Source: Escherichia phage vB_EcoM_FT. From it: a DNA stretch of 64,000 bases. A program made the position numbers and the translations under genes. Shown here one piece after another: positions 5,384 through 48,250 of this stretch (position 1 is the stretch's first letter; every line of letters begins with the position of its first letter). Under the pieces are notes generated by a model that saw nothing but the letters and a program-made list of their open reading frames with translations, did not search any database and was not told where the DNA came from. Location of the stretch: the sequence record MT682710.1; one strand, given 5' to 3'.

Positions 5384-7363
5384 ATGACTTTATTATCTCC
5401 GGGCATTGAGCTCAAAGAAACTACGGTTCAAAGCACCGTGGTTAATAACTCTACTGGTACAGCAGCTTTGGCCGGTAAATTCCAGTGGGGTCCTGCTTTT
5501 CAGATTAAACAGGTTACAAACGAAGTAGATTTAGTTAATACTTTTGGTCAACCTACAGCTGAAACTGCTGACTATTTTATGTCTGCAATGAATTTCTTAC
5601 AATATGGAAATGATTTGCGAGTTGTGCGCGCTGTCGATAGAGATACCGCTAAAAACTCATCTCCGATTGCTGGTAATATTGAATACACAATTTCTACCCC
5701 AGGTAGTAACTACGCGGTTGGAGATAAAATCACGGTCAAATATGTTTCAGAAGATGTTGAAACAGAAGGTAAAATTACCGAAGTAGATGCTGATGGAAAA
5801 ATTAAGAAAATTAATATTCCTACTGCAAAAATTATTGCTAAAGCTAAAGAAGTTGGCGAATACCCAACATTAGGTTCTAACTGGACTGCAGAAATTTCTT
5901 CATCTTCTTCCGGTTTAGCTGCAGTAATAACTCTTGGAAAAATTATTACTGATTCCGGTATTTTATTAGCTGAAATCGAGAGCGCTGAAACTGCTATGAC
6001 AGCAGTTGATTTTCAGGCAAATCTTGAAAAATATGGAATTCCAGGAGTAGTAGCTCTCTATCCAGGCGAATTAGGCGATAAAATTGAAATTGAAATCGTA
6101 TCTAAAGCTGACTATGTGAAAGGCGCTTCTGCATTACTGCCAATTTATCCAGGTGGTGGTACTCGTGCATCTACTGCCAAGGCAGTATTTGGATATGGGC
6201 CGCAGACTGACTCACAGTACGCTATTATAGTTCGTCGAAATGATGCTATTGTTCAAAGCGTTGTTCTTTCAACTAAGCGTGGTGAAAAAGATATTTACGA
6301 TAGTAACATCTATATCGATGACTTTTTCGCAAAAGGTGGTTCAGAATATATTTTTGCAACTGCACAAAACTGGCCAGAAGGATTCTCTGGAATTTTAACT
6401 CTTTCTGGTGGATTATCATCAAATGCTGAAGTTACAGCAGGAGATTTGATGGAAGCTTGGGACTTCTTTGCTGACCGTGAATCTGTTGACGTTCAACTGT
6501 TTATTGCGGGTTCTTGTGCCGGTGAATCTTTAGAAACAGCATCTACTGTCCAAAAACACGTCGTTTCAATTGGGGATGCTCGCCAAGATTGCTTAGTATT
6601 GTGCTCACCACCGCGTGAAACTGTAGTTGGAATTCCTGTAACCCGTGCTGTTGATAACTTAGTCAATTGGAGAACTGCCACAGGTTCATATACTGATAAT
6701 AACTTTAATATTAGTTCAACCTACGCAGCAATTGATGGTAACTACAAATATCAGTATGACAAATATAATGATGTGAATCGTTGGGTTCCATTAGCAGCTG
6801 ATATTGCTGGTTTATGCGCAAGAACTGATAACGTATCTCAGACTTGGATGTCTCCAGCTGGTTATAATCGTGGCCAGATTCTTAACGTTATTAAACTTGC
6901 TATTGAAACTCGCCAGGCTCAGCGCGACCGTTTATACCAAGAAGCTATCAACCCGGTAACTGGTACAGGTGGTGATGGTTACGTATTATATGGTGATAAA
7001 ACAGCTACTTCTGTTCCTTCTCCATTTGATCGTATTAACGTTCGTCGTCTGTTTAATATGTTGAAAACGAATATCGGACGTAGTTCAAAATATCGTTTGT
7101 TCGAATTAAACAATGCGTTTACTCGTTCTTCATTCCGTACAGAAACTGCTCAGTACTTGCAAGGAATTAAAGCTCTTGGCGGAATTTATGAATATCGTGT
7201 AGTTTGCGATACAACAAATAACACTCCGTCAGTAATTGATAGAAATGAGTTTGTTGCAACATTCTACATCCAACCGGCGCGCAGTATAAATTATATCCAG
7301 CTTAACTTCGTTGCGACTGCTACTGGTGCAGATTTCGATGAGTTAACTGGTCTTGCTGGTTAA
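5384..7363 (+). CDS. 18: tail sheath protein gp18
   Basis: 659 aa, T4 gp18 length; synteny. Confidence 0.93.
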   Translation: MTLLSPGIELKETTVQSTVVNNSTGTAALAGKFQWGPAFQIKQVTNEVDLVNTFGQPTAETADYFMSAMNFLQYGNDLRVVRAVDRDTAKNSSPIAGNIEYTISTPGSNYAVGDKITVKYVSEDVETEGKITEVDADGKIKKINIPTAKIIAKAKEVGEYPTLGSNWTAEISSSSSGLAAVITLGKIITDSGILLAEIESAETAMTAVDFQANLEKYGIPGVVALYPGELGDKIEIEIVSKADYVKGASALLPIYPGGGTRASTAKAVFGYGPQTDSQYAIIVRRNDAIVQSVVLSTKRGEKDIYDSNIYIDDFFAKGGSEYIFATAQNWPEGFSGILTLSGGLSSNAEVTAGDLMEAWDFFADRESVDVQLFIAGSCAGESLETASTVQKHVVSIGDARQDCLVLCSPPRETVVGIPVTRAVDNLVNWRTATGSYTDNNFNISSTYAAIDGNYKYQYDKYNDVNRWVPLAADIAGLCARTDNVSQTWMSPAGYNRGQILNVIKLAIETRQAQRDRLYQEAINPVTGTGGDGYVLYGDKTATSVPSPFDRINVRRLFNMLKTNIGRSSKYRLFELNNAFTRSSFRTETAQYLQGIKALGGIYEYRVVCDTTNNTPSVIDRNEFVATFYIQPARSINYIQLNFVATATGADFDELTGLAG

Positions 7364-7479: not shown

Positions 7480-7971
7480 ATGTTTGTAGATGATGTAACA
7501 CGAGCGTTTGAATCTGGTGATTTTGCTCGACCTAACTTATTCCAAGTAGAAATTTCTTATCTTGGACAAAATTTTACATTCCAATGTAAAGCCACTGCTT
7601 TACCAGCTGGTATTGTAGAAAAAATTCCAGTCGGATTTATGAACCGTAAAATTAACGTAGCAGGCGATCGTACATTCGATGACTGGACTGTTACAGTAAT
7701 GAACGATGAAGCTCATGATGCTCGCCAGAAGTTTGTTGATTGGCAAAGCATTGCTGCTGGTCAAGGAAACGAAATTACTGGTGGAAAACCTGCAGAGTAT
7801 AAAAAGAGCGCTATTGTTCGTCAATATGCTCGTGATGCTAAAACAGTAACAAAAGAAATTGAAATTAAAGGTCTGTGGCCTACTAACGTGGGTGAACTTC
7901 AATTAGATTGGGATTCAAACAATGAAATCCAAACCTTTGAAGTAACTCTTGCTCTCGATTATTGGGAATAA
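7480..7971 (+). CDS. 19: tail tube protein gp19
   Basis: 163 aa; synteny. Confidence 0.93.
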   Translation: MFVDDVTRAFESGDFARPNLFQVEISYLGQNFTFQCKATALPAGIVEKIPVGFMNRKINVAGDRTFDDWTVTVMNDEAHDARQKFVDWQSIAAGQGNEITGGKPAEYKKSAIVRQYARDAKTVTKEIEIKGLWPTNVGELQLDWDSNNEIQTFEVTLALDYWE

Positions 7972-7978
7972 AATGAAT

Positions 7979-7992
7979 GGGGAGAAATCCCC
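7979..7992 (+). other. hairpin (GGGGA-GAAA-UCCCC) after gene 19
   Basis: GNRA tetraloop hairpin 8 nt after the gene 19 stop. Confidence 0.5.
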
Positions 7993-11789: not shown

Positions 11790-13355
11790 ATGACTATCAA
11801 AACTAAAGCTGAACTTTTGAACAAATGGAAGCCATTACTGGAAGGTGAAGGTTTACCGGAAATTGCTAATAGCAAACAAGCGATTATCGCTAAAATCTTT
11901 GAAAACCAGGAAAAAGATTTCCAGACAGCTCCGGAATATAAAGACGAAAAAATTGCTCAGGCATTCGGTTCTTTCTTAACAGAAGCTGAAATCGGCGGTG
12001 ACCATGGTTACAATGCTACTAACATCGCTGCAGGTCAGACTTCTGGCGCAGTAACTCAGATTGGCCCAGCTGTTATGGGTATGGTACGTCGTGCTATTCC
12101 TAACCTGATTGCTTTCGATATTTGTGGTGTTCAGCCGATGAACAGCCCAACCGGTCAGGTATTCGCACTGCGTGCAGTATATGGTAAAGATCCGATCGCT
12201 GCCGGTGCTAAAGAAGCATTCCACCCAATGTATGGTCCAGATGCAATGTTCTCTGGTCAGGGTGCTGCTAAGAAATTCGCTGCTTTGAAAGCAAGTGATA
12301 CTCTTGAAGTCGGAACTATTTACACTCACTTCTTCCAGGAAACTGGTACAGTATATCTGCAAGCTACAGAAGCTAAACAAATTGATTCAGGCGCATCTGA
12401 CGCAGCTAAATTAGATGCTGAAATTAAGAAACAAATGGAAGCTGGTGTACTGGTAGAAATCGCTGAAGGTATGGCTACTTCTATCGCTGAACTCCAGGAA
12501 GGTTTCAACGGTTCTACCGATAACCCATGGAATGAAATGGGCTTCCGTATTGATAAGCAAGTTATTGAAGCTAAATCTCGTCAGCTGAAAGCTGCTTACT
12601 CTATCGAATTAGCACAAGACCTCCGCGCTGTTCACGGTATGGATGCTGACGCTGAACTGTCTGGTATTCTGGCTACAGAAATTATGCTGGAAATCAACCG
12701 TGAAGTTGTTGATTGGATTAACTACTCCGCTCAGGTTGGTAAATCTGGTATGACCCTGACTCCGGGTTCTAAAGCTGGTGTATTTGACTTCCAGGACCCA
12801 ATCGATATTCGTGGTGCTCGCTGGGCAGGTGAATCCTTTAAAGCTCTGTTGTTCCAGATTGACAAAGAAGCAGTTGAAATTGCTCGTCAGACCGGTCGCG
12901 GCGAAGGTAACTTCATTATCGCTTCCCGTAACGTAGTTAACGTTCTGGCTTCAGTTGATACCGGCATTTCTTATGCTGCACAAGGTCTGGCTACTGGCTT
13001 TAACACTGATACTACCAAGTCAGTATTTGCTGGTGTTCTGGGTGGTAAATACCGTGTATATATTGACCAGTATGCTAAACAGGATTATTTCACTGTAGGT
13101 TATAAAGGTCCGAACGAAATGGATGCTGGTATTTACTATGCTCCATATGTAGCTCTGACTCCGCTGCGTGGTTCCGATCCGAAGAACTTCCAACCGGTAA
13201 TGGGATTCAAAACTCGTTACGGTATCGGTATCAACCCATTTGCAGAATCCGCTGCACAGGCTCCGGCTTCTCGCATCCAGAGCGGTATGCCTTCTATTCT
13301 GAATAGCCTTGGTAAAAACGCTTACTTTAGACGTGTATATGTTAAAGGTATCTAA
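11790..13355 (+). CDS. 23: major capsid protein gp23
   Basis: 521 aa; synteny; strong terminator downstream. Confidence 0.95.
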   Translation: MTIKTKAELLNKWKPLLEGEGLPEIANSKQAIIAKIFENQEKDFQTAPEYKDEKIAQAFGSFLTEAEIGGDHGYNATNIAAGQTSGAVTQIGPAVMGMVRRAIPNLIAFDICGVQPMNSPTGQVFALRAVYGKDPIAAGAKEAFHPMYGPDAMFSGQGAAKKFAALKASDTLEVGTIYTHFFQETGTVYLQATEAKQIDSGASDAAKLDAEIKKQMEAGVLVEIAEGMATSIAELQEGFNGSTDNPWNEMGFRIDKQVIEAKSRQLKAAYSIELAQDLRAVHGMDADAELSGILATEIMLEINREVVDWINYSAQVGKSGMTLTPGSKAGVFDFQDPIDIRGARWAGESFKALLFQIDKEAVEIARQTGRGEGNFIIASRNVVNVLASVDTGISYAAQGLATGFNTDTTKSVFAGVLGGKYRVYIDQYAKQDYFTVGYKGPNEMDAGIYYAPYVALTPLRGSDPKNFQPVMGFKTRYGIGINPFAESAAQAPASRIQSGMPSILNSLGKNAYFRRVYVKGI

Positions 13356-17030: not shown

Positions 17031-17057
17031 CAAAATGAAGAAAGGGGCCGAAGCCCC
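17031..17057 (-). terminator. terminator after hoc
   Basis: Minus strand GGGGC-UUCG-GCCCC followed by UUUCUUCAUUUU. Confidence 0.65.
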
Positions 17058-17063
17058 TTATGA

Positions 17064-18482
17064 TTATGGATAGGTATAGATGATACCAGTTTCTAAAGCA
17101 GTTTTATGAATGATGTATCCATTACGCGATTCTTGAACATCAACTTCTGGATAGTCTTTCATCATCTTCTGAAGAGTGTAACGATGTAGGTAATATTTAC
17201 TATCTGGGTCGTCAGTTTTCCAATCTTTACCTTCTTCGGTCATTTTTTGGATTTCATCCATAACCCACCAACCGCACCAGATATAAGCTGAAGTACGATG
17301 TGGAAGAGGATGAACATAAGGTAATTCACCTTCTGGTTCTGGAGCAACTTTATCAGTTACCTGAACTTGACCTTCTGCTGTAATAGTTTTGCTATCATAG
17401 TCAGTAGCAGTAACAGTTGCAGTAACTTCAATAGTTTGACTTCCAATAGATGAGGTATCAACTGTATACACATTAGTCGATCCTTCTACAGGAGAAGAGT
17501 CTTTCTTCCATGAATAAGTAATTTGCGCTTCTTCTGGAGCATCAGTGACATTAGCAGTAAATGTAGCCGAAGCATCTTGTTGAACGTTAATAGAAGGAGG
17601 AGTCAATGTAACCTGTGGATTCATTGTCTTCTTATTAACTGTTAATGATACTTCATTCGAAGTAACTTCCTTTTCATTGTAATTTTCAGCAGTTACTTGG
17701 GCTACGCATTTAATTCTTTTTACTCCACTTGTAGTTGGAGTATAGCTAAATGTAGAGTTAGTTTCTCCACCAACTTGTGAATCATCTACATACCACTGAT
17801 ACGTAGCAGATGCTCCATCAGGTTGAGAAGCTAAGGCAGCAGTAAATTGAACTGGTGTTCCAATTACTCCAGCTGAAGGACTATCGGGAGTTACTGCCAA
17901 AGTAGTTGTCTGTGTCTTTTTATTAACAGTCAATGACACTTCATTAGAAGTAACTTCTTTTGCATCATAATCTGTCGCGGTTACTTGAGCCACACACTTA
18001 ATTCTTTTTACCCCGCTTTCGGCAGGAGTGTAATTGAACGTAGCGTTAGTTGCTTCGCCCACAGGAGAATCATCTACATACCATTGATAAGTAGCGTTTG
18101 CGCCCGATGGCTGCGAAGCTAAAGCGGCAGTAAATTCAATAGCTGTTCCGATTACTCCAGCGTCAGGGCTATTAGGAGTTACAGCTAAGGTAGTCGTTTG
18201 TGTCTTATTTTGAACTGTGATAGTTGTTGTCGCTTCAGCCGTTTCCGGGCCTCCTTCAGAAAGTGTATTTGTTGCAACTACTTTAATAGTCTTTTGACCG
18301 GCAGGTCCTTTTAGTACATAACTAAAAGTTGCTTCAGCTCCATCTTGTGGAGCATCATCTACAGTCCAAGCATAGGTAATAGTTCCGCCTCCAGTTTCAC
18401 CACTGGGTGTAGCAGTAAACTGCTGAGTCTGATCTATAACTCCAGTAGGTGTTTTAGGAGTTATATCAACTGTAAAAGCCAT
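17064..18482 (-). CDS. hoc: Hoc, highly immunogenic outer capsid protein, with four Ig-like domains (one duplicated)
   Basis: 472 aa; Ig-like repeats; C-terminal capsid-binding region ...YIWCGWWVMDEIQKMTEEGKDW...; 96-aa internal tandem duplication. Confidence 0.9.
   Translation of the reverse strand: MAFTVDITPKTPTGVIDQTQQFTATPSGETGGGTITYAWTVDDAPQDGAEATFSYVLKGPAGQKTIKVVATNTLSEGGPETAEATTTITVQNKTQTTTLAVTPNSPDAGVIGTAIEFTAALASQPSGANATYQWYVDDSPVGEATNATFNYTPAESGVKRIKCVAQVTATDYDAKEVTSNEVSLTVNKKTQTTTLAVTPDSPSAGVIGTPVQFTAALASQPDGASATYQWYVDDSQVGGETNSTFSYTPTTSGVKRIKCVAQVTAENYNEKEVTSNEVSLTVNKKTMNPQVTLTPPSINVQQDASATFTANVTDAPEEAQITYSWKKDSSPVEGSTNVYTVDTSSIGSQTIEVTATVTATDYDSKTITAEGQVQVTDKVAPEPEGELPYVHPLPHRTSAYIWCGWWVMDEIQKMTEEGKDWKTDDPDSKYYLHRYTLQKMMKDYPEVDVQESRNGYIIHKTALETGIIYTYP
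17637..18212 (-). repeat. diverged tandem duplication (2 x 288 bp) inside hoc, encoding two adjacent Ig-like domains
   Basis: Hoc residues ~91-186 and ~187-282 are about 80% identical; DNA at 17635-17670 and 17923-17958 aligns with a 288-bp offset. Confidence 0.85.
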
Positions 18483-19222: not shown

Positions 19223-20734
19223 ATGACTGACATTAAAGTACATTTTTATGATTTTAGTCACGTGAGAATTGATTGTGAAGAAAGTACATTTCATGAACTC
19301 CGTGATTTCTTTAGCTTTGAAGCTGATGGGTATCGTTTTAATCCGAAGTACAGATATGGCCACTGGGATGGACGAATCCGTCTGTTAGATTATAATCGTC
19401 TTCTTCCATTCGGCTTAGTCGGGCAAATTAAAAAGTTCTGTGATAACTTTGGCTATAAAGCCTGGATTGACCCACAAATTAACGAAAAAGAAGAATTATC
19501 AAGAAAAGATTTTGATGAATGGCTTTCTAAATTAGAAATCTATTCAGGAAATAAAAGAATTGAACCACACTGGTATCAAAAAGATGCAGTGTTCGAAGGA
19601 TTAGTTAATCGTCGTAGAATTCTTAATCTTCCAACATCCGCTGGTAAATCGTTAATTCAAGCTTTGCTTGCGCGATATTATTTGGAAAATTATGAAGGTA
19701 AAATTCTTATCATTGTTCCAACAACTGCTCTGACAACTCAGATGGCTGATGACTTCGTTGACTATCGTTTATTCAGTCATGCAATGATAAAGAAAATTGG
19801 TGGCGGAGCATCAAAAGATGATAAATATAAAAATGATGCACCAGTCGTTGTTGGTACATGGCAAACTGTAGTAAAACAACCGAAAGAATGGTTCTCACAG
19901 TTTGGAATGATGATGAATGATGAATGCCATCTTGCTACAGGAAAAAGTATTTCATCTATCATATCAGGTTTAAATAACTGCATGTTCAAATTTGGTCTAT
20001 CTGGTTCATTACGTGATGGCAAAGCCAATATCATGCAGTATGTTGGAATGTTTGGTGAAATATTTAAGCCAGTAACGACTTCTAAGTTAATGGAAGATGG
20101 ACAAGTAACTGAGCTAAAAATTAATAGTATTTTTCTTCGCTATCCCGATGAGTTCACTACTAAATTAAAGGGAAAAACTTATCAAGAAGAAATAAAAATT
20201 ATTACGGGGCTTAGTAAAAGAAATAAATGGATCGCTAAATTGGCTATTAAGCTTGCACAAAAAGATGAAAACGCTTTTGTCATGTTTAAACATGTATCGC
20301 ATGGTAAAGCTATTTTCGATTTAATTAAAAATGAATACGATAAAGTTTATTACGTATCAGGGGAAGTTGATACCGAAACCCGCAATATAATGAAAACCTT
20401 AGCTGAAAATGGTAAAGGAATAATTATAGTAGCTAGTTATGGTGTATTTTCTACTGGTATTTCAGTTAAAAATCTGCATCACGTTGTTTTAGCGCACGGT
20501 GTTAAATCAAAAATCATTGTATTACAAACAATCGGTCGTGTATTACGTAAGCATGGTTCTAAAACAATCGCAACAGTCTGGGACCTCATAGATGACTGTG
20601 GTGTCAAGCCAAAATCTGCTAATACTAAAAAGAAATATGTTCACTTGAACTATCTTTTAAAACACGGCATTGATCGTATTCAGCGCTACGCAGATGAAAA
20701 ATTTAATTACGTAATGAAAACAGTTAATTTATAA
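19223..20734 (+). CDS. uvsW: UvsW DNA/RNA helicase (SF2)
   Basis: 503 aa; helicase motifs (PTSAGKS Walker A-like, DECH box); late promoter upstream. Confidence 0.92.
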   Translation: MTDIKVHFYDFSHVRIDCEESTFHELRDFFSFEADGYRFNPKYRYGHWDGRIRLLDYNRLLPFGLVGQIKKFCDNFGYKAWIDPQINEKEELSRKDFDEWLSKLEIYSGNKRIEPHWYQKDAVFEGLVNRRRILNLPTSAGKSLIQALLARYYLENYEGKILIIVPTTALTTQMADDFVDYRLFSHAMIKKIGGGASKDDKYKNDAPVVVGTWQTVVKQPKEWFSQFGMMMNDECHLATGKSISSIISGLNNCMFKFGLSGSLRDGKANIMQYVGMFGEIFKPVTTSKLMEDGQVTELKINSIFLRYPDEFTTKLKGKTYQEEIKIITGLSKRNKWIAKLAIKLAQKDENAFVMFKHVSHGKAIFDLIKNEYDKVYYVSGEVDTETRNIMKTLAENGKGIIIVASYGVFSTGISVKNLHHVVLAHGVKSKIIVLQTIGRVLRKHGSKTIATVWDLIDDCGVKPKSANTKKKYVHLNYLLKHGIDRIQRYADEKFNYVMKTVNL

Positions 20735-29260: not shown

Positions 29261-29264
29261 CAAT

Positions 29265-29293
29265 GGGGACCGAAAGGTCCCCATATTTTATTT
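29265..29293 (+). terminator. terminator after gene 54 (convergent junction)
   Basis: GGGGACC-GAAA-GGUCCCC followed by AUAUUUUAUUU. Confidence 0.7.
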
Positions 29294-29578
29294 ACGGAAT
29301 GAAATAAAAGCAGCAACTGAAGCAACAGAGGTTTCTTCAATATAAACCTCAATTTTTACCGGAGCTTCTGACTCAAATTTACCTGTTACTACACCTTGGA
29401 AAATACTTTCAGTCTGTTCTGGCTTTGAAAAATTTTCAGAAGGAAAAATTCCGAACTTTTTATCGGTTCCGAAAATTTTAATAAATTCATCATAAACTGC
29501 TTCATTGAAAGCGTTATCAGCAGGAATAACGCCTTCAACTACAAGTTCTTGACCTAAAAAGCGTAAAGAAGATTTCAT
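29288..29578 (-). CDS. hypothetical 11-kDa protein downstream of alt
   Basis: 96-aa ORF with GAGG RBS; own early promoter upstream. Confidence 0.65.
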   Translation of the reverse strand: MKSSLRFLGQELVVEGVIPADNAFNEAVYDEFIKIFGTDKKFGIFPSENFSKPEQTESIFQGVVTGKFESEAPVKIEVYIEETSVASVAAFISFRK

Positions 29579-29586
29579 TTTGTGTT

Positions 29587-29639
29587 CCTCATGTTATGTC
29601 AGTAAGATTACTATAACACAACACGAGGGACTTGTAAAC
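29587..29639 (-). repeat. 53-bp early-promoter repeat, copy 1
   Basis: 51 of 53 nt identical to 45401-45453. Confidence 0.85.
29610..29639 (-). promoter_or_regulatory. early (sigma70-type) promoter: GTTTAC -35, 18-nt spacer, TATAGT -10
   Basis: Minus strand GTTTACAAGTCCCTCGTGTTGTGTTATAGT; part of a 53-bp repeat. Confidence 0.65.
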
Positions 29640-31696
29640 TACATTTTGAACTTTTTAGACATTCCGTTGATGTTAACCAAAGAAGCTAAGATTTGAGAAA
29701 CTTCGCTTTCCTCTTCTTTTGATTCTTCTACAAGGAATTGATTAAATCCAGCCATTGGACGAACTTCACCAGTTTCCATTAGATGGTCGCCATCATATAC
29801 TGATTCTTCTAATTGTTCAGAAGGAGGAACGATTGTACCTTCGATTAGATACTTGTTATAAGCAGTTTCTTTCATAAAGTAAGTACTTACTTTATTAATC
29901 TTCAGTAAAATTCCACGTGGTAGAATAACTTCAGCTTCTGATGGAAATCCTGACAAATGACCTGGAACGATAACTTTAACTCGTTCAGCTCCTTTAATTA
30001 CCATACCCACGCTAGTTTCAGCATCTTCATTAGCATATGTAGAATGACTACCCATATGCATCAAATCTTCTGCATCAACGGAACCTTCTCCTTCACCAGA
30101 AAATACTGCACCGGAATCATCTAGAGCCATATAGTTTTTACCATACTCACCAAAGATATTTGGTTTAAGTGATGTCGATACGAAGTTCTTGAAATAGAAC
30201 ATTTTGTTTTCAATGTTATGACGCAAAGTTTTAAATGTAACTTCTTGTCCACGGTAAAGTGTAGTTCCTGGAGGAAGAACTGAACCTTTAGCGAATGCAG
30301 AATCAAGCGTCTCGATGTGCTTAATAGCACGTTCCATATATTCTTCACGGGTAGAATCCGGTTTACCTAAAAGGAACGAGTTCATTTCAACATATGAATC
30401 TGCGCAATAATCTTCAATTACATCAGATTCAGCCTGAGTCAGCCCTTTTGGAGTTACTTCAGTACTTGCATATTCATATGCCTGGGCAGCAGATTCATTA
30501 ATCAATTTATAAATGCCATTCATGACAAATTGAATAATAGCTGTCTTTTCATCTGGCGTAGCTTTAGAACCTTTAACTAAATCATTGATAATTTTCTTAA
30601 TAACATCAAAGCTATTAGAAATATTAATGTCAGCAAGATCGCTTAAAATTTTATCAGTTTTATAATCAAAGAATTCTTTATTCTTTAAATATTCTTGAGA
30701 ACCTTGATGTGTTATATCGCTCTGCAACTTGATAGACGGATCACGTAAACGTGCATGGGCTAATGCAATATGATTTCGGAAACTTTCTAGTTCATAATCG
30801 TTAGATTTAAAACGAGAAGCACTTCTCATACCACCGATAGCTCCTTTGCTAAAGTTTGAACCAATCTGAATAACGCCAGAGTTCATTGGTCCTTCTGCTT
30901 TATATACCGGAACTTTAGATTCAAACTCTTGATATTTCTTAGCAGCGAAGCTATCACCCTGAAGTGAAGCATCAACAGTCGAATATTGAGCTTGTGCTGC
31001 TAATCGACGACTAATTTTAGTTTTCTGAATAACAGCTTGATCCGTGCGCTTATCATTTTCTAAAGCAATAGAAGCAGCAACAGCAACAGCTTTAGGAACA
31101 GCATTACCTGTTTTAACGTCTACATAAACATCACCAACCTTTGATTCAACTTTTGTGAATAACTCAGTTGAAATAGGAGGTACACCTGGAATGTCTTCTA
31201 ATTTGGCATTTTTACGGTAAACCATAATATATGCGTACTTTTTATCATAATCCCAGATTTCCTTTAAAAGAACATATCGACCTGCTCCTTTAGTACGTAC
31301 TAAACGGTCAGCAATAACTTGAATTTGTCGAGCAGCGCCATTTGTTTTACTTTTTAGTACGCGGAATAGGCATGCATCAATTTTATACTGTTTCATTGTT
31401 TGAAGAGCAGTATCAAAAACAGCATTAATGACGCCAATTGGATTTCCACCCAAGTTTCTAAGCTTGACTAACGATAATTTCTCGTTGACCCCTATCATTA
31501 CGATATGCATCATTTTGTCGCCTGGCTTAACGTTTTTATTTGTATCACCACCAGAGGTGTATGTACAAAATCTAAATCCAGGAAGCACACTTTCTTCGCC
31601 TGCTTGAATAGCAAAAATTTGTGGTATTTTATGCTTAGGATTTAAGTTAACAACCGGCGCCGAAGCGCCGTCAAATAATTCTGTAATAAGTTCCAT
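29639..31696 (-). CDS. Alt-like ADP-ribosyltransferase paralog (685 aa)
   Basis: N-terminal MELITELFD... head-targeting region; C-terminal ART triad R (LYRGQ) / STS (FVSTSL) / ExE (SEAEVILPRG); 3 nt from upstream alt. Confidence 0.85.
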   Translation of the reverse strand: MELITELFDGASAPVVNLNPKHKIPQIFAIQAGEESVLPGFRFCTYTSGGDTNKNVKPGDKMMHIVMIGVNEKLSLVKLRNLGGNPIGVINAVFDTALQTMKQYKIDACLFRVLKSKTNGAARQIQVIADRLVRTKGAGRYVLLKEIWDYDKKYAYIMVYRKNAKLEDIPGVPPISTELFTKVESKVGDVYVDVKTGNAVPKAVAVAASIALENDKRTDQAVIQKTKISRRLAAQAQYSTVDASLQGDSFAAKKYQEFESKVPVYKAEGPMNSGVIQIGSNFSKGAIGGMRSASRFKSNDYELESFRNHIALAHARLRDPSIKLQSDITHQGSQEYLKNKEFFDYKTDKILSDLADINISNSFDVIKKIINDLVKGSKATPDEKTAIIQFVMNGIYKLINESAAQAYEYASTEVTPKGLTQAESDVIEDYCADSYVEMNSFLLGKPDSTREEYMERAIKHIETLDSAFAKGSVLPPGTTLYRGQEVTFKTLRHNIENKMFYFKNFVSTSLKPNIFGEYGKNYMALDDSGAVFSGEGEGSVDAEDLMHMGSHSTYANEDAETSVGMVIKGAERVKVIVPGHLSGFPSEAEVILPRGILLKINKVSTYFMKETAYNKYLIEGTIVPPSEQLEESVYDGDHLMETGEVRPMAGFNQFLVEESKEEESEVSQILASLVNINGMSKKFKM

Positions 31697-31699
31697 GAT

Positions 31700-33793
31700 T
31701 TATCCTTGAACGAACTTGTAAGGCATGTTTGTAATATCTATGCAAGACGCAATAATTCCAAGAGATGATTCTACTTTCTGTTTAACGTTTGATGAAACAA
31801 ATGATGCAAAGTCAACTCTGTCTTCTATTTCAATATCACCTGTCATTGCAACCAATTCACCAGTTTCCATTAAATGGTCTCCATCATAGATTACCGATTC
31901 GGTGAGCTCTTCCGTGGTCATAACTTCAGCTTGAATGAGTTTTGTATTATTAGATGTTGTTCCGTCATTATTAGAAGCATCAGTTATTTTATTAACTTTG
32001 ACCATCAATCCACGCGGTAGAATAACTTCAGCTTCTGTTGCTATTCCGAGACTTCCTGGATATACAACATTAACTTTATGAGCTCCATCAATTGCCCATC
32101 CTATTTGAACTTTAACGTATTCAGGATTTTCTTTATACGCTCTTATTTCGTTTGGATTAATAGTTATTCCTTCTTCATTTTTATCAACTGTTAATTCATT
32201 GCGAGCTTCTGGTTCTAAAAGACCAATACCAGCATGTGTGATTCCAAAACGTCCAAAAATGATAGGAGTTAAAGAAGTAGATACAAAATTTCTGAAGTAG
32301 AACACTTTATTTTTAACTAACGCTTCATATATAGGAGCAGTCATACTTTGAGCACGATAAACTGTAATGCCTTCTGGTATACGGTCACCATTTTCAAAAG
32401 CTGAATCTAAGTTATTTATAGCAGATTCAATTTCTTTTTCACTCATTACATCATATCGTTCTGGATTGTAACGACCTAAAAGAAGATTATTGATGTCAGT
32501 ATATCCTGAACCACAATATTCTCTAATGCCGCGCTTTTGTGATGGAGTATATTTAGAACCATCACGGGTAATAGTAATATCAATCATTGGACCAGCACCA
32601 ATTCCAGAAAAACTGTAAATCATTCGTTTGAGGAATTTAGTTTTTGCTGCGTTCCAGGAATTTTTAGTTATTTCTTCCCAGACTTCATCTGGTTGTCCTT
32701 TACGATTTTTATTATGATTAGCAAGCCATTTATCTTTATAATCTTCAAAGAATTGATTTACAGCTGCTGCGTATTTCTCTAAACATTTTATTGAAGTAGT
32801 TGGTTCATTTTTAATTGCATTAAAAATTACTTCTTTAATTTTTTCTGAAACTTCACCGACTTGACTCATTGGAAAGAATTTATAATCATAGTGAAGTTCA
32901 TCTGCCGTTCCTTCAGCAATAATTTTTGCTGCCTTTGTTTTAGAAGCTAATGAATTAATTCCAATTTTCATTTCTTCTGCTTCGGGAATTAAAGGTGCAG
33001 TAGCTGGTTTATTAAAATTAGCTGCTGTAGATTCATACTTCTGGAATAATTCACTTTCAAATCTAGAAGATTCCAATGACTGACTTTGTGCAATTGCTCT
33101 ACGGGAAATTTTAACTTTAACGATTACGGCTTGGTCAGAACGTTTATCATTTTCTTGTGCAATAGATGCTGCAATTGCCTCATTTTTAGTTACTTGGGCT
33201 CCAGTATCTTTATTGATATAAACATCGCCGACTTTCGATTCAACTTTAGTAAAGAGTTCAGTGCTAATTTCTGGAACTCCTGGAATGTTTTCTAGTGATA
33301 CATTTTTACGATGTATAAGAATATATGCATACTTTTTATCGTAATCCCAGAGTTCCTTAAGAAGGACGTATCTGCCACCTGAACGACTACGGATAAGTCT
33401 ATCAGCAATAACTTGAATTTGCCGAGCTTGACCAGCGGTTTTAGACTTAAGAATACGAAGCATGCAGGCATCAATTTTATATTGACGCATAGTTTGCATT
33501 GCAACAGTAAAAACTGAATTGATATAATTAATTGGGCTTGGACCAAGACCTTTTAATTTAGCAATTGAACCTTTAGCAGTTAATGTAAAAGGAACAATAT
33601 GCATCATTTTATCGCCCATCTTTAAATCGCGATTAGTATCACCTCCAGATGTATAGGTACATAAACGAAAGCCTGGTTGTTCAATTGCGTCATCGACATG
33701 AACTGAAAAAATTTGTGGTATTTTCTTCTTTGGATTTAAGTTTGTAATCGGAAGAGTAGTATCTTCGTCAAATAATTCTGTAATAAGTTCCAT
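31700..33793 (-). CDS. alt: Alt ADP-ribosyltransferase (internal head protein)
   Basis: 697 aa from second ATG (better RBS spacing); ART triad R (VYRAQ) / STS / ExE (TEAEVILPRG); late promoter upstream. Confidence 0.9.
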   Translation of the reverse strand: MELITELFDEDTTLPITNLNPKKKIPQIFSVHVDDAIEQPGFRLCTYTSGGDTNRDLKMGDKMMHIVPFTLTAKGSIAKLKGLGPSPINYINSVFTVAMQTMRQYKIDACMLRILKSKTAGQARQIQVIADRLIRSRSGGRYVLLKELWDYDKKYAYILIHRKNVSLENIPGVPEISTELFTKVESKVGDVYINKDTGAQVTKNEAIAASIAQENDKRSDQAVIVKVKISRRAIAQSQSLESSRFESELFQKYESTAANFNKPATAPLIPEAEEMKIGINSLASKTKAAKIIAEGTADELHYDYKFFPMSQVGEVSEKIKEVIFNAIKNEPTTSIKCLEKYAAAVNQFFEDYKDKWLANHNKNRKGQPDEVWEEITKNSWNAAKTKFLKRMIYSFSGIGAGPMIDITITRDGSKYTPSQKRGIREYCGSGYTDINNLLLGRYNPERYDVMSEKEIESAINNLDSAFENGDRIPEGITVYRAQSMTAPIYEALVKNKVFYFRNFVSTSLTPIIFGRFGITHAGIGLLEPEARNELTVDKNEEGITINPNEIRAYKENPEYVKVQIGWAIDGAHKVNVVYPGSLGIATEAEVILPRGLMVKVNKITDASNNDGTTSNNTKLIQAEVMTTEELTESVIYDGDHLMETGELVAMTGDIEIEDRVDFASFVSSNVKQKVESSLGIIASCIDITNMPYKFVQG

Positions 33794-33816: not shown

Positions 33817-33824
33817 TATTTATA
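33817..33824 (-). promoter_or_regulatory. late promoter for alt
   Basis: TATAAATA on minus strand ~20 nt upstream of the alt ATG. Confidence 0.65.
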
Positions 33825-37462: not shown

Positions 37463-37782
37463 TAGAACCTCATCTGAAAACCATGCGATTTAACATTACC
37501 ACCGCCAATATCAGAAATGTTAATTTCACTCGCAATCGAAGGATCGATGTCAATTTCGCGATTGAGTTTAGTGATAGCTAAAGTATCACGCCCATTTACT
37601 GTACGGAATTCTAAAGGACAAACCACATCAACGTAATTTTTAATCGATTCACTGGTAGGTTGCAAATGAGCAGGAAGGTCTTTGGGCGCCTTTGAGAAAA
37701 CCACTTCACAGAAATTTTTACGGGTATCAAAATAAGTAGTCATAAACATGGTATTTTCCTCAGTAAGGGGCCGAAGCCCCAT
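37462..37782 (-). CDS. hypothetical protein
   Basis: 106-aa ORF; start may be an internal Met. Confidence 0.5.
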   Translation of the reverse strand: MGLRPLTEENTMFMTTYFDTRKNFCEVVFSKAPKDLPAHLQPTSESIKNYVDVVCPLEFRTVNGRDTLAITKLNREIDIDPSIASEINISDIGGGNVKSHGFQMRF

Positions 37783-37788
37783 TTTATT

Positions 37789-38154
37789 TTAAATATCAAA
37801 TTCATTAAGAACTACATCAAAGATTGCTTCGAGATGTTCAGGTTTAGCTCTGTTACTCAGAATATGACGAATCCAAGTTTTAACCAAAAGCTTGCGATTA
37901 GCACCATTCCAACAAGGATGAGTCCCTAAATCGCGTTGACGAAAATCATCATCCAGAGCGATTTTAAAGTTGGAACCTTCCATTGTGATTGAAACCGTGA
38001 TGCCATTTTCAAATCGCATATAAACGTAATTAGGAGTCATATACTGTTCAATTTCGCATACTGATCCATTTTGATGTTTCCAAAGGCAAATAGTATCAAT
38101 AGAACCTGCAATACCATTAGAAACATATTTACGTTCAAAGTTGATGTAGTTCAT
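37789..38154 (-). CDS. hypothetical protein
   Basis: 121-aa ORF downstream of an early promoter; GGAG RBS. Confidence 0.6.
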   Translation of the reverse strand: MNYINFERKYVSNGIAGSIDTICLWKHQNGSVCEIEQYMTPNYVYMRFENGITVSITMEGSNFKIALDDDFRQRDLGTHPCWNGANRKLLVKTWIRHILSNRAKPEHLEAIFDVVLNEFDI

Positions 38155-42120: not shown

Positions 42121-42150
42121 ATAATATCACAACTCTACCGTAAAGTAAAC
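42121..42150 (-). promoter_or_regulatory. early promoter candidate: GTTTAC-N18-TATTAT
   Basis: Minus strand; upstream of the 175-aa ORF. Confidence 0.55.
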
Positions 42151-44252: not shown

Positions 44253-44548
44253 TTACATTTATCCTCTTTTAACTCTTGACGATAATAACATATCATAGTT
44301 TTCTGGTCATGTACATATCGTTTTACGTCATTAAGCCAAATACGAAATTCCTGAGAATCTTCAAATGGCATACCTACCCAAGCTTTACCATCAATAACTT
44401 TAACTTGCCAAGATAGTTTAGCTTCGTCATATGACTTTATTTGTACAGGCCAATTAGGATGAACTGTTTCTTTCTTTACTTCTAGAGGCTTTGTCGAACA
44501 ACCAACTAGAAGACCAATAGATAATATTACTGCTGATAGTTTAATCAT
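44249..44548 (-). CDS. predicted lipoprotein, outer-membrane spanin-like
   Basis: 99 aa; signal peptide with lipobox LLVGC; immediately follows a TM/coiled-coil ORF. Confidence 0.6.
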   Translation of the reverse strand: MIKLSAVILSIGLLVGCSTKPLEVKKETVHPNWPVQIKSYDEAKLSWQVKVIDGKAWVGMPFEDSQEFRIWLNDVKRYVHDQKTMICYYRQELKEDKCK

Positions 44549-44898
44549 TTAGAAAGGTCCTGGATGTCTTCTGCGAACTTATTGAAGGAGTTGTTGATTT
44601 GTTTTTCAACCAATCCTGGCTTATGAGCCACCACATCCGCCTTCTTTGCATCTTTGCGCAGTTTTTCATTTTCACGCTCAATAGCAGCAATTGCCTCACG
44701 ATTTTTATTATTCATCGCATCAATATAATTATACTGAATTCGCAAATTATTTAATGCTAAGGCGTTTTCATTGGCCGTTTTTGTAATTTCAGTAACTGAT
44801 GTTTCTAATCTTTCTACCTTATTTTTTAAAATAATAGATGTTCCGCCAAATGCTATTACAAGTAATAGCAATCCAGCTGTAAAATTACTTACATGCAT
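44545..44898 (-). CDS. N-terminal transmembrane + coiled-coil protein, inner-membrane spanin-like
   Basis: 117 aa; hydrophobic N-terminus LLLLVIAFGGTSIIL; rest charged helical; overlaps the lipoprotein ORF. Confidence 0.6.
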   Translation of the reverse strand: MHVSNFTAGLLLLVIAFGGTSIILKNKVERLETSVTEITKTANENALALNNLRIQYNYIDAMNNKNREAIAAIERENEKLRKDAKKADVVAHKPGLVEKQINNSFNKFAEDIQDLSK

Positions 44899-45395
44899 AA
44901 AGTTTTAATAACCTCTATAATATCGTCTTGAGAAAGACTGTTAATTAAAATATGATGTTCAGCTGGAGATTTAGAAATTTTAAAACATGCCTCAACATCT
45001 TCTGCCATATCCGATGCGCTACGATTTGGATTACTAATCCCAAGGCGGTGTTTTCCCGTCAAAGGATTAACGATGATATAGCATTTACAACTATTGATAT
45101 GAACATTAGGCTGAGTCTGATTAATGAACACTTCACAATCATACTTAGCGAGTTGATTTTCTAAAAAGACTTTCATCTCCTCAACCGCATCGGGAAGCAT
45201 ATCACGGGCTTGCTCAAGACGACGATTTCGATATTCTTTAACGGTCGTTTTCCGCTTGACTTGCTTAGCTAAATCTTTCTTAAGATCGGTGATATATCCA
45301 ACTCGACGATTTCCTTTGAATACAGAAATCCCATCTGTAGTATCACCGTATGCTTCAACGACCATTTCAGTAGTAATAAGCTGCAAATCCATCAT
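44889..45395 (-). CDS. alc: Alc, transcription terminator on cytosine-containing DNA
   Basis: 168 aa, MMDLQLITTEM...; position between spanin pair and rnlA. Confidence 0.75.
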   Translation of the reverse strand: MMDLQLITTEMVVEAYGDTTDGISVFKGNRRVGYITDLKKDLAKQVKRKTTVKEYRNRRLEQARDMLPDAVEEMKVFLENQLAKYDCEVFINQTQPNVHINSCKCYIIVNPLTGKHRLGISNPNRSASDMAEDVEACFKISKSPAEHHILINSLSQDDIIEVIKTLCM

Positions 45396-45400
45396 AAAGT

Positions 45401-45453
45401 CCTCATGTTATGTCAGTAAGACTACTATAACACAACATGAGGGACTTGTAAAC
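45401..45453 (-). repeat. 53-bp early-promoter repeat, copy 2
   Basis: 51 of 53 nt identical to 29587-29639. Confidence 0.85.
45424..45453 (-). promoter_or_regulatory. early promoter upstream of alc: GTTTAC-N18-TATAGT
   Basis: Minus strand GTTTACAAGTCCCTCATGTTGTGTTATAGT; second copy of the 53-bp repeat. Confidence 0.65.
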
Positions 45454-45456
45454 AGC

Positions 45457-47044
<1,588 letters not shown>

Positions 47045-47052
47045 AATAAAAT

Positions 47053-47066
47053 GGGCCTTGCGGCCC
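47053..47066 (-). other. hairpin (GGGCC-GCAA-GGCCC) between the nrdB stop and denA start, separating a GGAG from the denA ATG
   Basis: Minus strand TAA-GGAGUGGGCCGCAAGGCCCAUUUUAUU-AUG. Confidence 0.55.
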
Positions 47067-47071
47067 ACTCC

Positions 47072-48250
47072 TTAAAAATATTTTTTAAAACTCATCATAA
47101 CTTTATCATCAACATCATTATCAATCTGTGCAACAAGATAAGATGACAGTTCTACTTCTTGCGGCGCGGATTGAACATTATCAGAATTAAGGTATTCACG
47201 AATCCAAGGATATGGATGTTTAACCGGAGCATCGGTAATTGGGCATGGAAGACCACACTGTTTCATACGAGATACAGTTAAGTAATCAATAAAGCTCCAC
47301 ATGCTATTTGTATTTAATCCAGGAACATCGCCATCTTTAAATAAATGAACTGCCCAATCTTTTTCTTGGCGGTTAACTTCCATGAAAATATCAACTGCTT
47401 CTTGTTCACACTCTTGAGCAATTTTAACCCATTCATCACCATCCGTGCCAAGTTGAAGTTGACGAATAATATATTGTGTACCTTTAAGATGAAGCTGCTC
47501 ATCACGTGCAATGAACTTCATAATCTTGGCATTACCTTCCATGATTTCCATGTTCTTATGGAAGTTAAAGGTACATGCGAAAGATACATAAAAACGAATA
47601 GCTTCCAATGCGTTGATTACATGCAAGCAGAGGTAAAGACATTTCATTAAAGCACGTTTAGCTTCGACTTCTTGTTTAATAGCTCGGTTTAAACGAAAGT
47701 CGGCATCAGGAGATTCTTTAGCTAGTTCTACAAATTCTTTAGCATTTTCCCATTCACGGGTTTTAATCAAAACATCATCATAATAACGTCCAATAGATTC
47801 GGCTCGTTTCATAATAGCTTCATCTAATACAATTTCATCAAATACCTTCGATGGATCAGTATAAAGATTTCGCATGATATGTGTATATGAACGACTGTGA
47901 ATAGTTTCACTAAAAGTCCATGTAGCAACCCATGTATCAAGACTTGGGTCTGAAATTAATGACATAAGTACAGCAGATGGCGCACGACCCTGAATGCTAT
48001 CCAAAAGTGATTGATACTTCAGGTTGTTAGTAAAAATATTTTGCTGGTACTGAGGAAGCTTATTAAACTGTGCAGCATCCATCATTAAGTTTACTTCTTC
48101 GGGACGCCAGAAAAATGATAATTGCTTTTCGGTCAAATCTTCAAAAACTTTATGGCGTTGAATATCATAACGCGCAATACCAAGACCTGAACCAAAAAAC
48201 ATAGGTTCTTTTAAAACATCAACTGGATTTGTATTAAAAACTGTGCTCAT
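47072..48250 (-). CDS. nrdB: ribonucleotide reductase small subunit, uninterrupted (no intron)
   Basis: 392-aa continuous ORF. Confidence 0.92.
   Translation of the reverse strand: MSTVFNTNPVDVLKEPMFFGSGLGIARYDIQRHKVFEDLTEKQLSFFWRPEEVNLMMDAAQFNKLPQYQQNIFTNNLKYQSLLDSIQGRAPSAVLMSLISDPSLDTWVATWTFSETIHSRSYTHIMRNLYTDPSKVFDEIVLDEAIMKRAESIGRYYDDVLIKTREWENAKEFVELAKESPDADFRLNRAIKQEVEAKRALMKCLYLCLHVINALEAIRFYVSFACTFNFHKNMEIMEGNAKIMKFIARDEQLHLKGTQYIIRQLQLGTDGDEWVKIAQECEQEAVDIFMEVNRQEKDWAVHLFKDGDVPGLNTNSMWSFIDYLTVSRMKQCGLPCPITDAPVKHPYPWIREYLNSDNVQSAPQEVELSSYLVAQIDNDVDDKVMMSFKKYF

Follow-up and report, generated by a model that had tools for sequence, protein, structure and literature searches.

The genes alc and alt.-3 of Escherichia phage vB_EcoM_FT are each preceded by a 54-bp cassette in which an early promoter, both strands of a predicted RNA hairpin and the Shine-Dalgarno sequence are interleaved. 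We propose that this cassette insulates translation according to the origin of the transcript, such that alc and alt.-3 would be translated mainly from RNA begun at their own early promoters. The sequence, the predicted fold and the comparison between genera all speak for this function, which we infer and consider reasonably probable.

Two copies of one early-promoter cassette

The window, by which we mean the whole 64,000-nucleotide stretch of phage DNA that was analysed (record MT682710.1), comes from a Tequatrovirus. Over 44400-46900, its identity is 100% with Escherichia phage HEMP5; with some 500 Tequatrovirus genomes it is about 98%. A repeat search of the window matched copy 1 (29586-29639) with copy 2 (45400-45453) at 52/54 positions. 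A preliminary description made from the letters alone had called the element upstream of alc the second copy of a near-identical early-promoter cassette; this holds, with 51/53 identities in the 53-bp frame used there and a promoter of the sigma-70-type T4 early class. On the minus strand, the two copies differ by A45438 versus G29624 and by G45422 versus A29608. The two copies of T4 itself are one base apart (53/54). Among 253 pairs of T4 early-promoter-like sites compared in the same frame, the median was 24/54 and the next best pair reached 39/54, so the early-promoter consensus cannot account for the likeness of the two copies.

Read along the minus strand, each copy contains an upstream stop codon, GTTTAC (-35), 18 nt, TATAGT (-10), GAGG and ATG, in that order. 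Copy 2 runs TAA(rnlA stop)-GCT-GTTTAC-AAGTCCCTCATGTTGTGT-TATAGT-AGTCTTACTGACATAACATGAGG-ACTTT-ATG-ATG. The marks of a T4-type early (sigma-70) promoter (GTTTAC, 18 nt, TG and TATAGT) were found at 45453-45424 and at 29639-29610, and the promoter on the alc side is annotated as 'promoter' in two GenBank relatives. The late-promoter motif TATAAATA is absent from the cassette. RNA begun at 45417 is predicted to be without the 5' arm, which lies inside the promoter spacer and reads CCUCGUGUU at the equivalent position in T4. Scanning 45300-45560 against Rfam 15 gave two chance-level hits (E 0.26 and 0.57), neither of which came near its family's gathering score. Coordinates are collected in Table 1.

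Table 1. Features of the two cassettes and their surroundings. Positions are those of the window unless a locus is named.
Feature	Position	Strand	Basis or remarks
rnlA (gene 63, RNA ligase 1)	45457-46581	minus	stop TAA 45457-45459; homologues annotated in RB27 and T4
-35 hexamer GTTTAC, alc early promoter	45448-45453	minus	3 nt past the rnlA stop
5' arm CCTCATGTT (CCUCAUGUU), anti-Shine-Dalgarno	45442-45434	minus	inside the promoter spacer
Extended -10	45424-45432	minus	TG 45432-45431, one base, TATAGT 45429-45424; apical part of the hairpin
Predicted transcription start, A	45417	minus	7 nt after the -10; from promoter geometry
3' arm AACATGAGG (AACAUGAGG)	45409-45401	minus	contains Shine-Dalgarno GAGG 45404-45401
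Predicted hairpin of read-through RNA	45398-45446	minus	5' strand 45446-45423, loop 45422-45419, 3' strand 45418-45398
alc (inhibitor of host transcription)	44889-45395	minus	ATG 45395-45393; T4-annotated ATG 45392-45390
Second alt paralogue, intact, 685 aa	29639-31696	minus	stop TAG 29641-29639 overlaps the copy 1 -35
Copy 1 cassette	29586-29639	minus	-35 29639-29634; -10 29615-29610
Copy 1 5' arm CCUCGUGUU	29628-29620	minus	
Copy 1 3' arm	29595-29587	minus	
Copy 1 Shine-Dalgarno	29590-29587	minus	
Copy 1 predicted hairpin	29584-29631	minus	fold
alt.-3 homologue, 96 aa, gene served by copy 1	29288-29578	minus	ORF; T4 annotation
Terminator-like hairpin before the late-promoter motif	33848-33829	minus	
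Late-promoter motif TATAAATA upstream of alt	33817-33824	minus	motif search
Bidirectional terminator-like hairpin after alt.-3	29263-29284		first minus-strand one downstream of 33848-33829
regB cassette, T4	locus L069, about 12740-12797		
Further regB cassettes	loci L040, L043, L050 and L056		
dmd early promoter, T4	locus L068, about 20560-20612	minus	
mobD.2 early promoter, T4	locus L069, about 7940-7990	minus	

Around copy 2, the minus-strand gene order is denA, rnlA, alc, pseT.3, as in the annotated relatives RB27 and T4, with which the gene names rnlA and alc given earlier agree. The gene order at the alc site is kept across genera. The element directly adjoins the rnlA stop, as had been described. 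GAGG lies 5 and 8 nt upstream of two candidate alc start codons (45395 and 45392). The start of rnlA was set at the T4-equivalent ATG (MQELFNN...); the mechanically called open reading frame, 45457-46617, opens at a GTG 12 codons before the T4-annotated ATG, and this 12-codon extension is probably untranslated.

Copy 1 sits between the second alt paralogue and the alt.-3 homologue, and it adjoins a deletion in the alt paralogue of T4. The T4 alt.-1/alt.-2 fragments match a deletion of about 1.7 kb between two 9-bp direct repeats, CTAAAAAGT, found in the window at 31349-31357 and 29650-29658 (minus strand) and in T4 at about 6066-6140 of locus L023. This 9-bp repeat is a different one from that of the cassette, and the deletion spared the last codons of the paralogue (KFKM*) and the promoter cassette.

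When the 81-nt element was used as a blastn query, 499 records were hit at 997 places. Exactly two copies were present in 498 of the 499, comprising every Tequatrovirus record, upstream of alc and of alt.-3; the search also gave one odd single hit and no match in other genera. The alt.-3 copy probably arose in the Tequatrovirus lineage by duplication of the whole promoter-hairpin-ribosome-site unit, a direction that we infer. No polymorphisms pointing to gene conversion were shared between the copies among the few sequences compared. The 54 nt at 31824-31877 of MG010123.1, the 32-kb record of Staphylococcus phage SAJK-IND, are 96% identical to the cassette; they lie near the record end and are probably contamination or a chimeric assembly.

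Predicted folds of read-through and promoter-proximal RNA

On RNA that enters the cassette from upstream, the predicted hairpin has 21 base pairs arranged as 5+12+4, with C45441 bulged, two G.U pairs and the -10 near the tip. The perfect 9-bp inverted repeat reported in the preliminary description was correctly placed, but in extent it is the core of this longer hairpin. It is perfect in the window but not generally: where the window has A45438, T4 has G, as do four of five IMG/VR alc copies, and a G.U pair results, the A-U pair of the window being a minority allele. The overlap of the 3' arm with the alc Shine-Dalgarno sequence was described accurately.

An 81-nt minus-strand RNA covering copy 2 (45460-45380) folded at -28.2 kcal/mol (z = -4.6), with 0/200 shuffles equally stable, and the corresponding fold of copy 1 reached -23.0 kcal/mol (z = -3.6). 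RNAs from the predicted start were unstructured (z about 0). In the predicted folds, the Shine-Dalgarno sequence had an unpaired probability of 0.00 on read-through RNA and of 0.87-0.98 for three of its four bases on the promoter-proximal alc RNA. T4 folds gave the same contrast. On the promoter-proximal RNA of copy 1, the Shine-Dalgarno sequence is predicted to pair weakly with the coding region (-2.2 kcal/mol).

The copy 2 hairpin alone folded at -24.8 kcal/mol in the sense orientation versus -19.8 kcal/mol in antisense. Through its G.U pairs, the sense stem gains 5-6 kcal/mol over its antisense counterpart. The differences among copies and strains are one-sided in the same way: pairing is kept solely in sense RNA, as with the A-U to G.U change at 45438 and with a U.G pair that becomes U-A in the T4 alt.-3 copy. 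These modelled folds assign the signal to the sense RNA.

Arms that change together across genera

Regions upstream of alc were compared in 14 further phages representing 14 lineages, with distant genera reached by tblastn on a phage collection. Eight other Tevenvirinae genera show the succession of rnlA stop, -35, 5' arm, -10, 3' arm ending in the Shine-Dalgarno sequence, and alc, and the arm sequences differ between these genera. Helices of 9-14 bp joining spacer and Shine-Dalgarno sequence were found in Gelderlandvirus (5' arm UCUCCGUUUAGUU, 3' arm AACUAAACGGAGA), Karamvirus and Moonvirus (UCUCCAUUUGG and CCAAAUGGAGA), Jiaodavirus (AUCCUCAUCAG and CUGAUGAGGAU), Dhakavirus (UCUCCUCAUG and CAUGAGGAGA), Roskildevirus (UCUCCUCAG and CUGAGGAGA) and Winklervirus (UCCUCAUUUCGUU and AACGAAAUGAGGA). 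The Marfavirus helix (CCUAGUUUGUU and AACAAACGAGG) is bulged and weaker.

An alignment of 17 cassettes with MAFFT, followed by RNAalifold, yielded no consensus structure because the 3' arms are out of register. A per-sequence helix search with a spacer-shuffle null and a register table was used instead. With the spacer alone shuffled, most sequences gave a helix of the observed length over the Shine-Dalgarno sequence no more than 5 times in 5000 trials. Spacer positions 13-16 were paired in 14/14 sequences with two to four pair types each (CG, GC, AU, UA), in a table that was built by hand with the register picked for each sequence and therefore leans towards pairing. Judged from these sequences, the arm changes between genera are compensatory.

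Mosigvirus has the same gene order and promoter and no helix over the Shine-Dalgarno sequence, and the hairpin is missing in Tulanevirus and Twarogvirinae (two Acinetobacter phages). With these groups lacking it and Marfavirus weak, the design must be dispensable. In Gaprivervirus VR25, a terminator and an extra open reading frame are inserted between rnlA and alc (locus L026, 190-503). The strong terminator-like hairpin there is AAAAAGGGGTGTACAAGCCCCTTCTTT; the extra 77-aa reading frame is annotated like alc, resembles the Alc N-terminus and has its own Shine-Dalgarno sequence in a local hairpin. Scans of IMG/VR with the single proteins Alc and Alt.-3 returned close relatives only, and an exact-pattern scan for the Karamvirus, Moonvirus and Gelderlandvirus cassette hit each contig once, at alc, without turning up a second copy.

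regB and other early promoters

A scan of the T4 genome for Shine-Dalgarno sequences that are paired on read-through RNA and open on promoter-proximal RNA singled out alc, alt.-3, regB, modB and mrh.2, the modB and mrh.2 cases being weak. The regB helix has 15 bp in T4. The gene for a RegB homologue in another genus (60% identity, E = 2e-63), whose cassette surfaced from the exact-pattern scan described above, has a 13-bp helix of different sequence. At T4 dmd, mobD.2, ipII, 30.7, motB and rnh, a strong hairpin surrounds the -10 and stops short of the Shine-Dalgarno sequence. Our main caveat is that hairpins spanning the -10 may have a more general role, of which overlap with the ribosome-binding site may be secondary or one specialization.

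Two further sets of early promoters resemble the cassette in part. The look-alike pair dmd and mobD.2 is 39/54 identical; in both, a hairpin of 14-15 bp surrounds the -10 and ends before the Shine-Dalgarno sequence, with compensatory changes between the two (GCUGACAAGACUA/UAGUCUUGUCGGU versus GUUGACAAGAUUA/UAAUCUUGUCAAC). Early-promoter-like sites on the minus strand of the window, with -35 at 42150, 38220, 57761 and 14126, carry inverted repeats around the -10 (GGTAGAG/CTCTACC, GGTACAGG/CCTGTACC and AGATTT/AAATCT), none of which covers a Shine-Dalgarno sequence.

The regB gene encodes a nuclease that cuts GGAG in early Shine-Dalgarno sites, and its own Shine-Dalgarno sequence is buried on read-through RNA in the predicted fold. 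Secondary structure blocks RegB cleavage (PMC3014915), so long regB transcripts would also be shielded from RegB. The cassette itself was considered as a RegB target and ruled out, the T4-type Shine-Dalgarno sequence being GAGG rather than GGAG or GGAU. GGAG is the Shine-Dalgarno sequence in several other genera.

Read-through transcription and timing of expression

No terminator-like site was found in 44800-47300, nor at copy 1 between alt and alt.-3. By sequence criteria, neither copy combines a GC-rich stem with a U run: the tail after the hairpin is ACUUUAUG in copy 2 and AACACAAA in copy 1, and it is A-rich in all other genera. Without a U-tract, the element was ruled out as an intrinsic terminator on these criteria. 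Since no terminator-like site separates rnlA from alc, RNA reading through from rnlA would hold both arms and thus the whole hairpin, as had been anticipated in the preliminary description.

For copy 1, the late-promoter motif TATAAATA at 33824-33817 is the likely origin of late read-through RNA. With this motif placed before alt and the next minus-strand terminator past alt.-3, late alt transcripts should cross the cassette. In T4 omics data, alc, alt.-3 and regB are early at both the RNA and the protein level, rnlA RNA is early and its protein late, and alt is late (PMC9697503). This timing is what one would expect, without being proof, if the downstream genes were translated mainly from RNA of their own early promoters. 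The early timing of alc and alt.-3 also lends indirect support to an immediate start at these promoters after infection. The literature search found no genome-wide map of T4 transcription start sites. Elsewhere in the window, a repeated GC-rich hairpin, AAGGGGCCGAAGCCCCTT (17039-17072 and 37762-37795), looks like a shared terminator motif.

Relation to known elements

T4 early promoters (Pe), reportedly described by Liebig and Rüger in 1989 and by Wilkens and Rüger in 1994, share with the cassette the -35 GTTTAC, a TG-extended -10, an A-rich upstream region and a short leader. The Pe class, reviewed in PMC2988021, has a consensus that accounts for about 24/54 identities and leaves both the 52-53/54 identity of the copies and the complementarity of the arms unexplained.

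In its layout, the element is a PeSL-type (promoter-early stem-loop) cassette, as far as sequence can tell. PeSLs, reported from T4-like phages (Arbiol et al. 2010, PMC2839356; Comeau et al. 2014, PMC4122927), have an upstream stop, a strong sigma-70-type early promoter, a stem-loop, a Shine-Dalgarno sequence and a start codon in the same order, and here all of these parts fall within 61 nt from stop to ATG. These reports place the stem-loop of RB49 and phi1 commonly between -35 and -10 or over the -10, describe repetition within a genome and report PeSLs for the T4/PST pair. There are also several differences. The PST/T4 PeSLs are described with the stem-loop just upstream of the promoter, whereas here it lies within the promoter. 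PeSLs are presented as enriched in hyperplastic regions and next to indels; the two copies here seem to occupy conserved gene neighbourhoods rather than indel hot spots, and copy 1 adjoins the alt-paralogue deletion of T4. Termination or attenuation, and linkage in recombination, are the roles given to their stem-loops, whereas here there is no U-tract and the 3' arm ends in the Shine-Dalgarno sequence. Sequestration of the ribosome-binding site is not mentioned for PeSLs in the accessible parts of either report, and the word 'translation' does not occur in those of PMC2839356.

T4 e (lysozyme), soc, 49 and I-TevI are established cases of a hairpin that hides a ribosome-binding site and contains an internal promoter (PMC3014915, PMC2988022), with I-TevII/III, segB and Aeh1 mobE as further members. 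As predicted here, the promoter start lies between the two strands, long RNAs are silent and promoter-proximal RNAs are translatable. In every published case a late gene has the late promoter TATAAATA and is kept silent on RNA of the early or middle period, a shared feature noted by Edgell et al. (2010). In contrast, the cassette has an early sigma-70 promoter, and we propose that later or longer transcripts are the ones silenced, which reverses the timing. Unlike in the late-gene hairpins, the whole spacer from -35 to -10 forms one strand of the stem. Compared with these published cases and with the PeSL reports, the modelled element would be the early-promoter mirror image of the late hairpins.

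Alternative explanations

Three other roles were weighed against translational insulation. The hairpin could act as an attenuator that stops or pauses polymerases arriving from upstream, or as an element of RNA processing or stability, such as an RNase III or exonuclease boundary, with its overlap of the Shine-Dalgarno sequence incidental. This is the kind of role first put forward for PeSL stem-loops. A GC-rich RB49 PeSL stem-loop cut lacZ expression like a strong terminator in a transcriptional fusion (PMC2839356). Many T4 early-promoter hairpins around the -10 do not touch the Shine-Dalgarno sequence, as this explanation would have it. A helix of about 21 bp is near the minimum for an RNase III substrate, and the predicted stem would just reach that size. 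However, the U-tract of a terminator is missing in all genera and no terminator-like site was found, and a 3' arm ending in the Shine-Dalgarno sequence in eight genera and at regB is needless for an attenuator. We consider this explanation unlikely. A feature of the DNA itself, namely a recombination linker, a cruciform or a protein-binding palindrome, with the likeness of the copies due to recent duplication or gene conversion, appears very improbable. The PeSL reports do credit these elements with mediating recombination and modular shuffling (PMC2839356, PMC4122927) and cite about 50 bp of homology as sufficient for T4 recombination (PMC2839356), and several genera have arms that form perfect Watson-Crick palindromes. 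Against this, G.U pairs make the structure strand-specific, and the arms covary between genera rather than being conserved as a protein operator would be. Among the few sequences compared, each variant is confined to a single copy of a single lineage and nothing points to conversion. Recombination between the direct copies would cost the phage 15.8 kb, in which DNA ligase and gene 31 lie.

The position of the stop codon raises translational coupling, in which the site would stay closed on polycistronic RNA until a ribosome reaching the end of rnlA or of the alt paralogue opens up the 5' arm. The stop is always tight against the -35, with 3 nt between them for alc and an overlap for alt.-3 and in Dhakavirus, Marfavirus and Winklervirus; in these three genera, the anti-Shine-Dalgarno strand begins about 7 nt past the stop, presumably within reach of a terminating ribosome. 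In T4-type cassettes, however, the CCUC core begins 10-16 nt past the stop, at or beyond the expected reach, and the start codon is 60 nt away. The late appearance of the rnlA protein versus the early appearance of Alc also argues against tight coupling. Coupling as the main function therefore seems quite unlikely to us, and as a partial leak it is compatible with translational insulation.

Proposed mechanism and implications

Under translational insulation, the promoter spacer would encode the anti-Shine-Dalgarno strand, and the first 20 or so transcribed bases would encode its complement, ending in the alc Shine-Dalgarno sequence. RNA from the early promoter (predicted +1 near 45417) would have the 3' strand alone, leaving the ribosome-binding site open, and alc would be translated at once after infection. 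RNA from rnlA (copy 2) or from the late alt unit (copy 1) would carry both strands; the 21-bp hairpin would then bury the Shine-Dalgarno sequence, so that alc and alt.-3 would be poorly translated. In this way, the cassette would limit synthesis of Alc and Alt.-3 to the period in which the early promoters fire. With the stop codon only 7-13 nt from the 5' arm, a ribosome that terminates there may unpair the foot of the stem, above all where a genus has the stop overlapping the -35.

We put forward, tentatively, a general rule for Tevenvirinae by which immediate-early or potentially harmful genes (alc, regB and alt.-3) are translated only from RNA of their own promoters. If this possible rule is true, these genes would be silent on abundant middle and late read-through RNA. 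If insulation operates as proposed, translation of Alc would be off once its promoter stops, despite ongoing transcription from upstream, and RegB and Alt.-3 would be under the same control. Promoter, insulator and ribosome-binding site would form one portable 54-bp unit that was copied whole onto a new gene in the ancestor of Tequatrovirus and that some 500 sequenced genomes preserve with hardly any change. The design is built from known principles and is conserved, in a model phage. For phage and synthetic-biology design, it would offer a 54-bp part in which a strong promoter and a ribosome-binding site come together with insulation against transcription from upstream, and PeSL stem-loops would gain a concrete, testable role beyond termination and recombination.

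The timing of RNA and of protein often disagrees in T4 (PMC9697503), and the element may help to explain part of this mismatch. T4 timing is usually put down to promoter classes and a few late-gene hairpins; the cassette suggests that the same trick is used here in the opposite direction.
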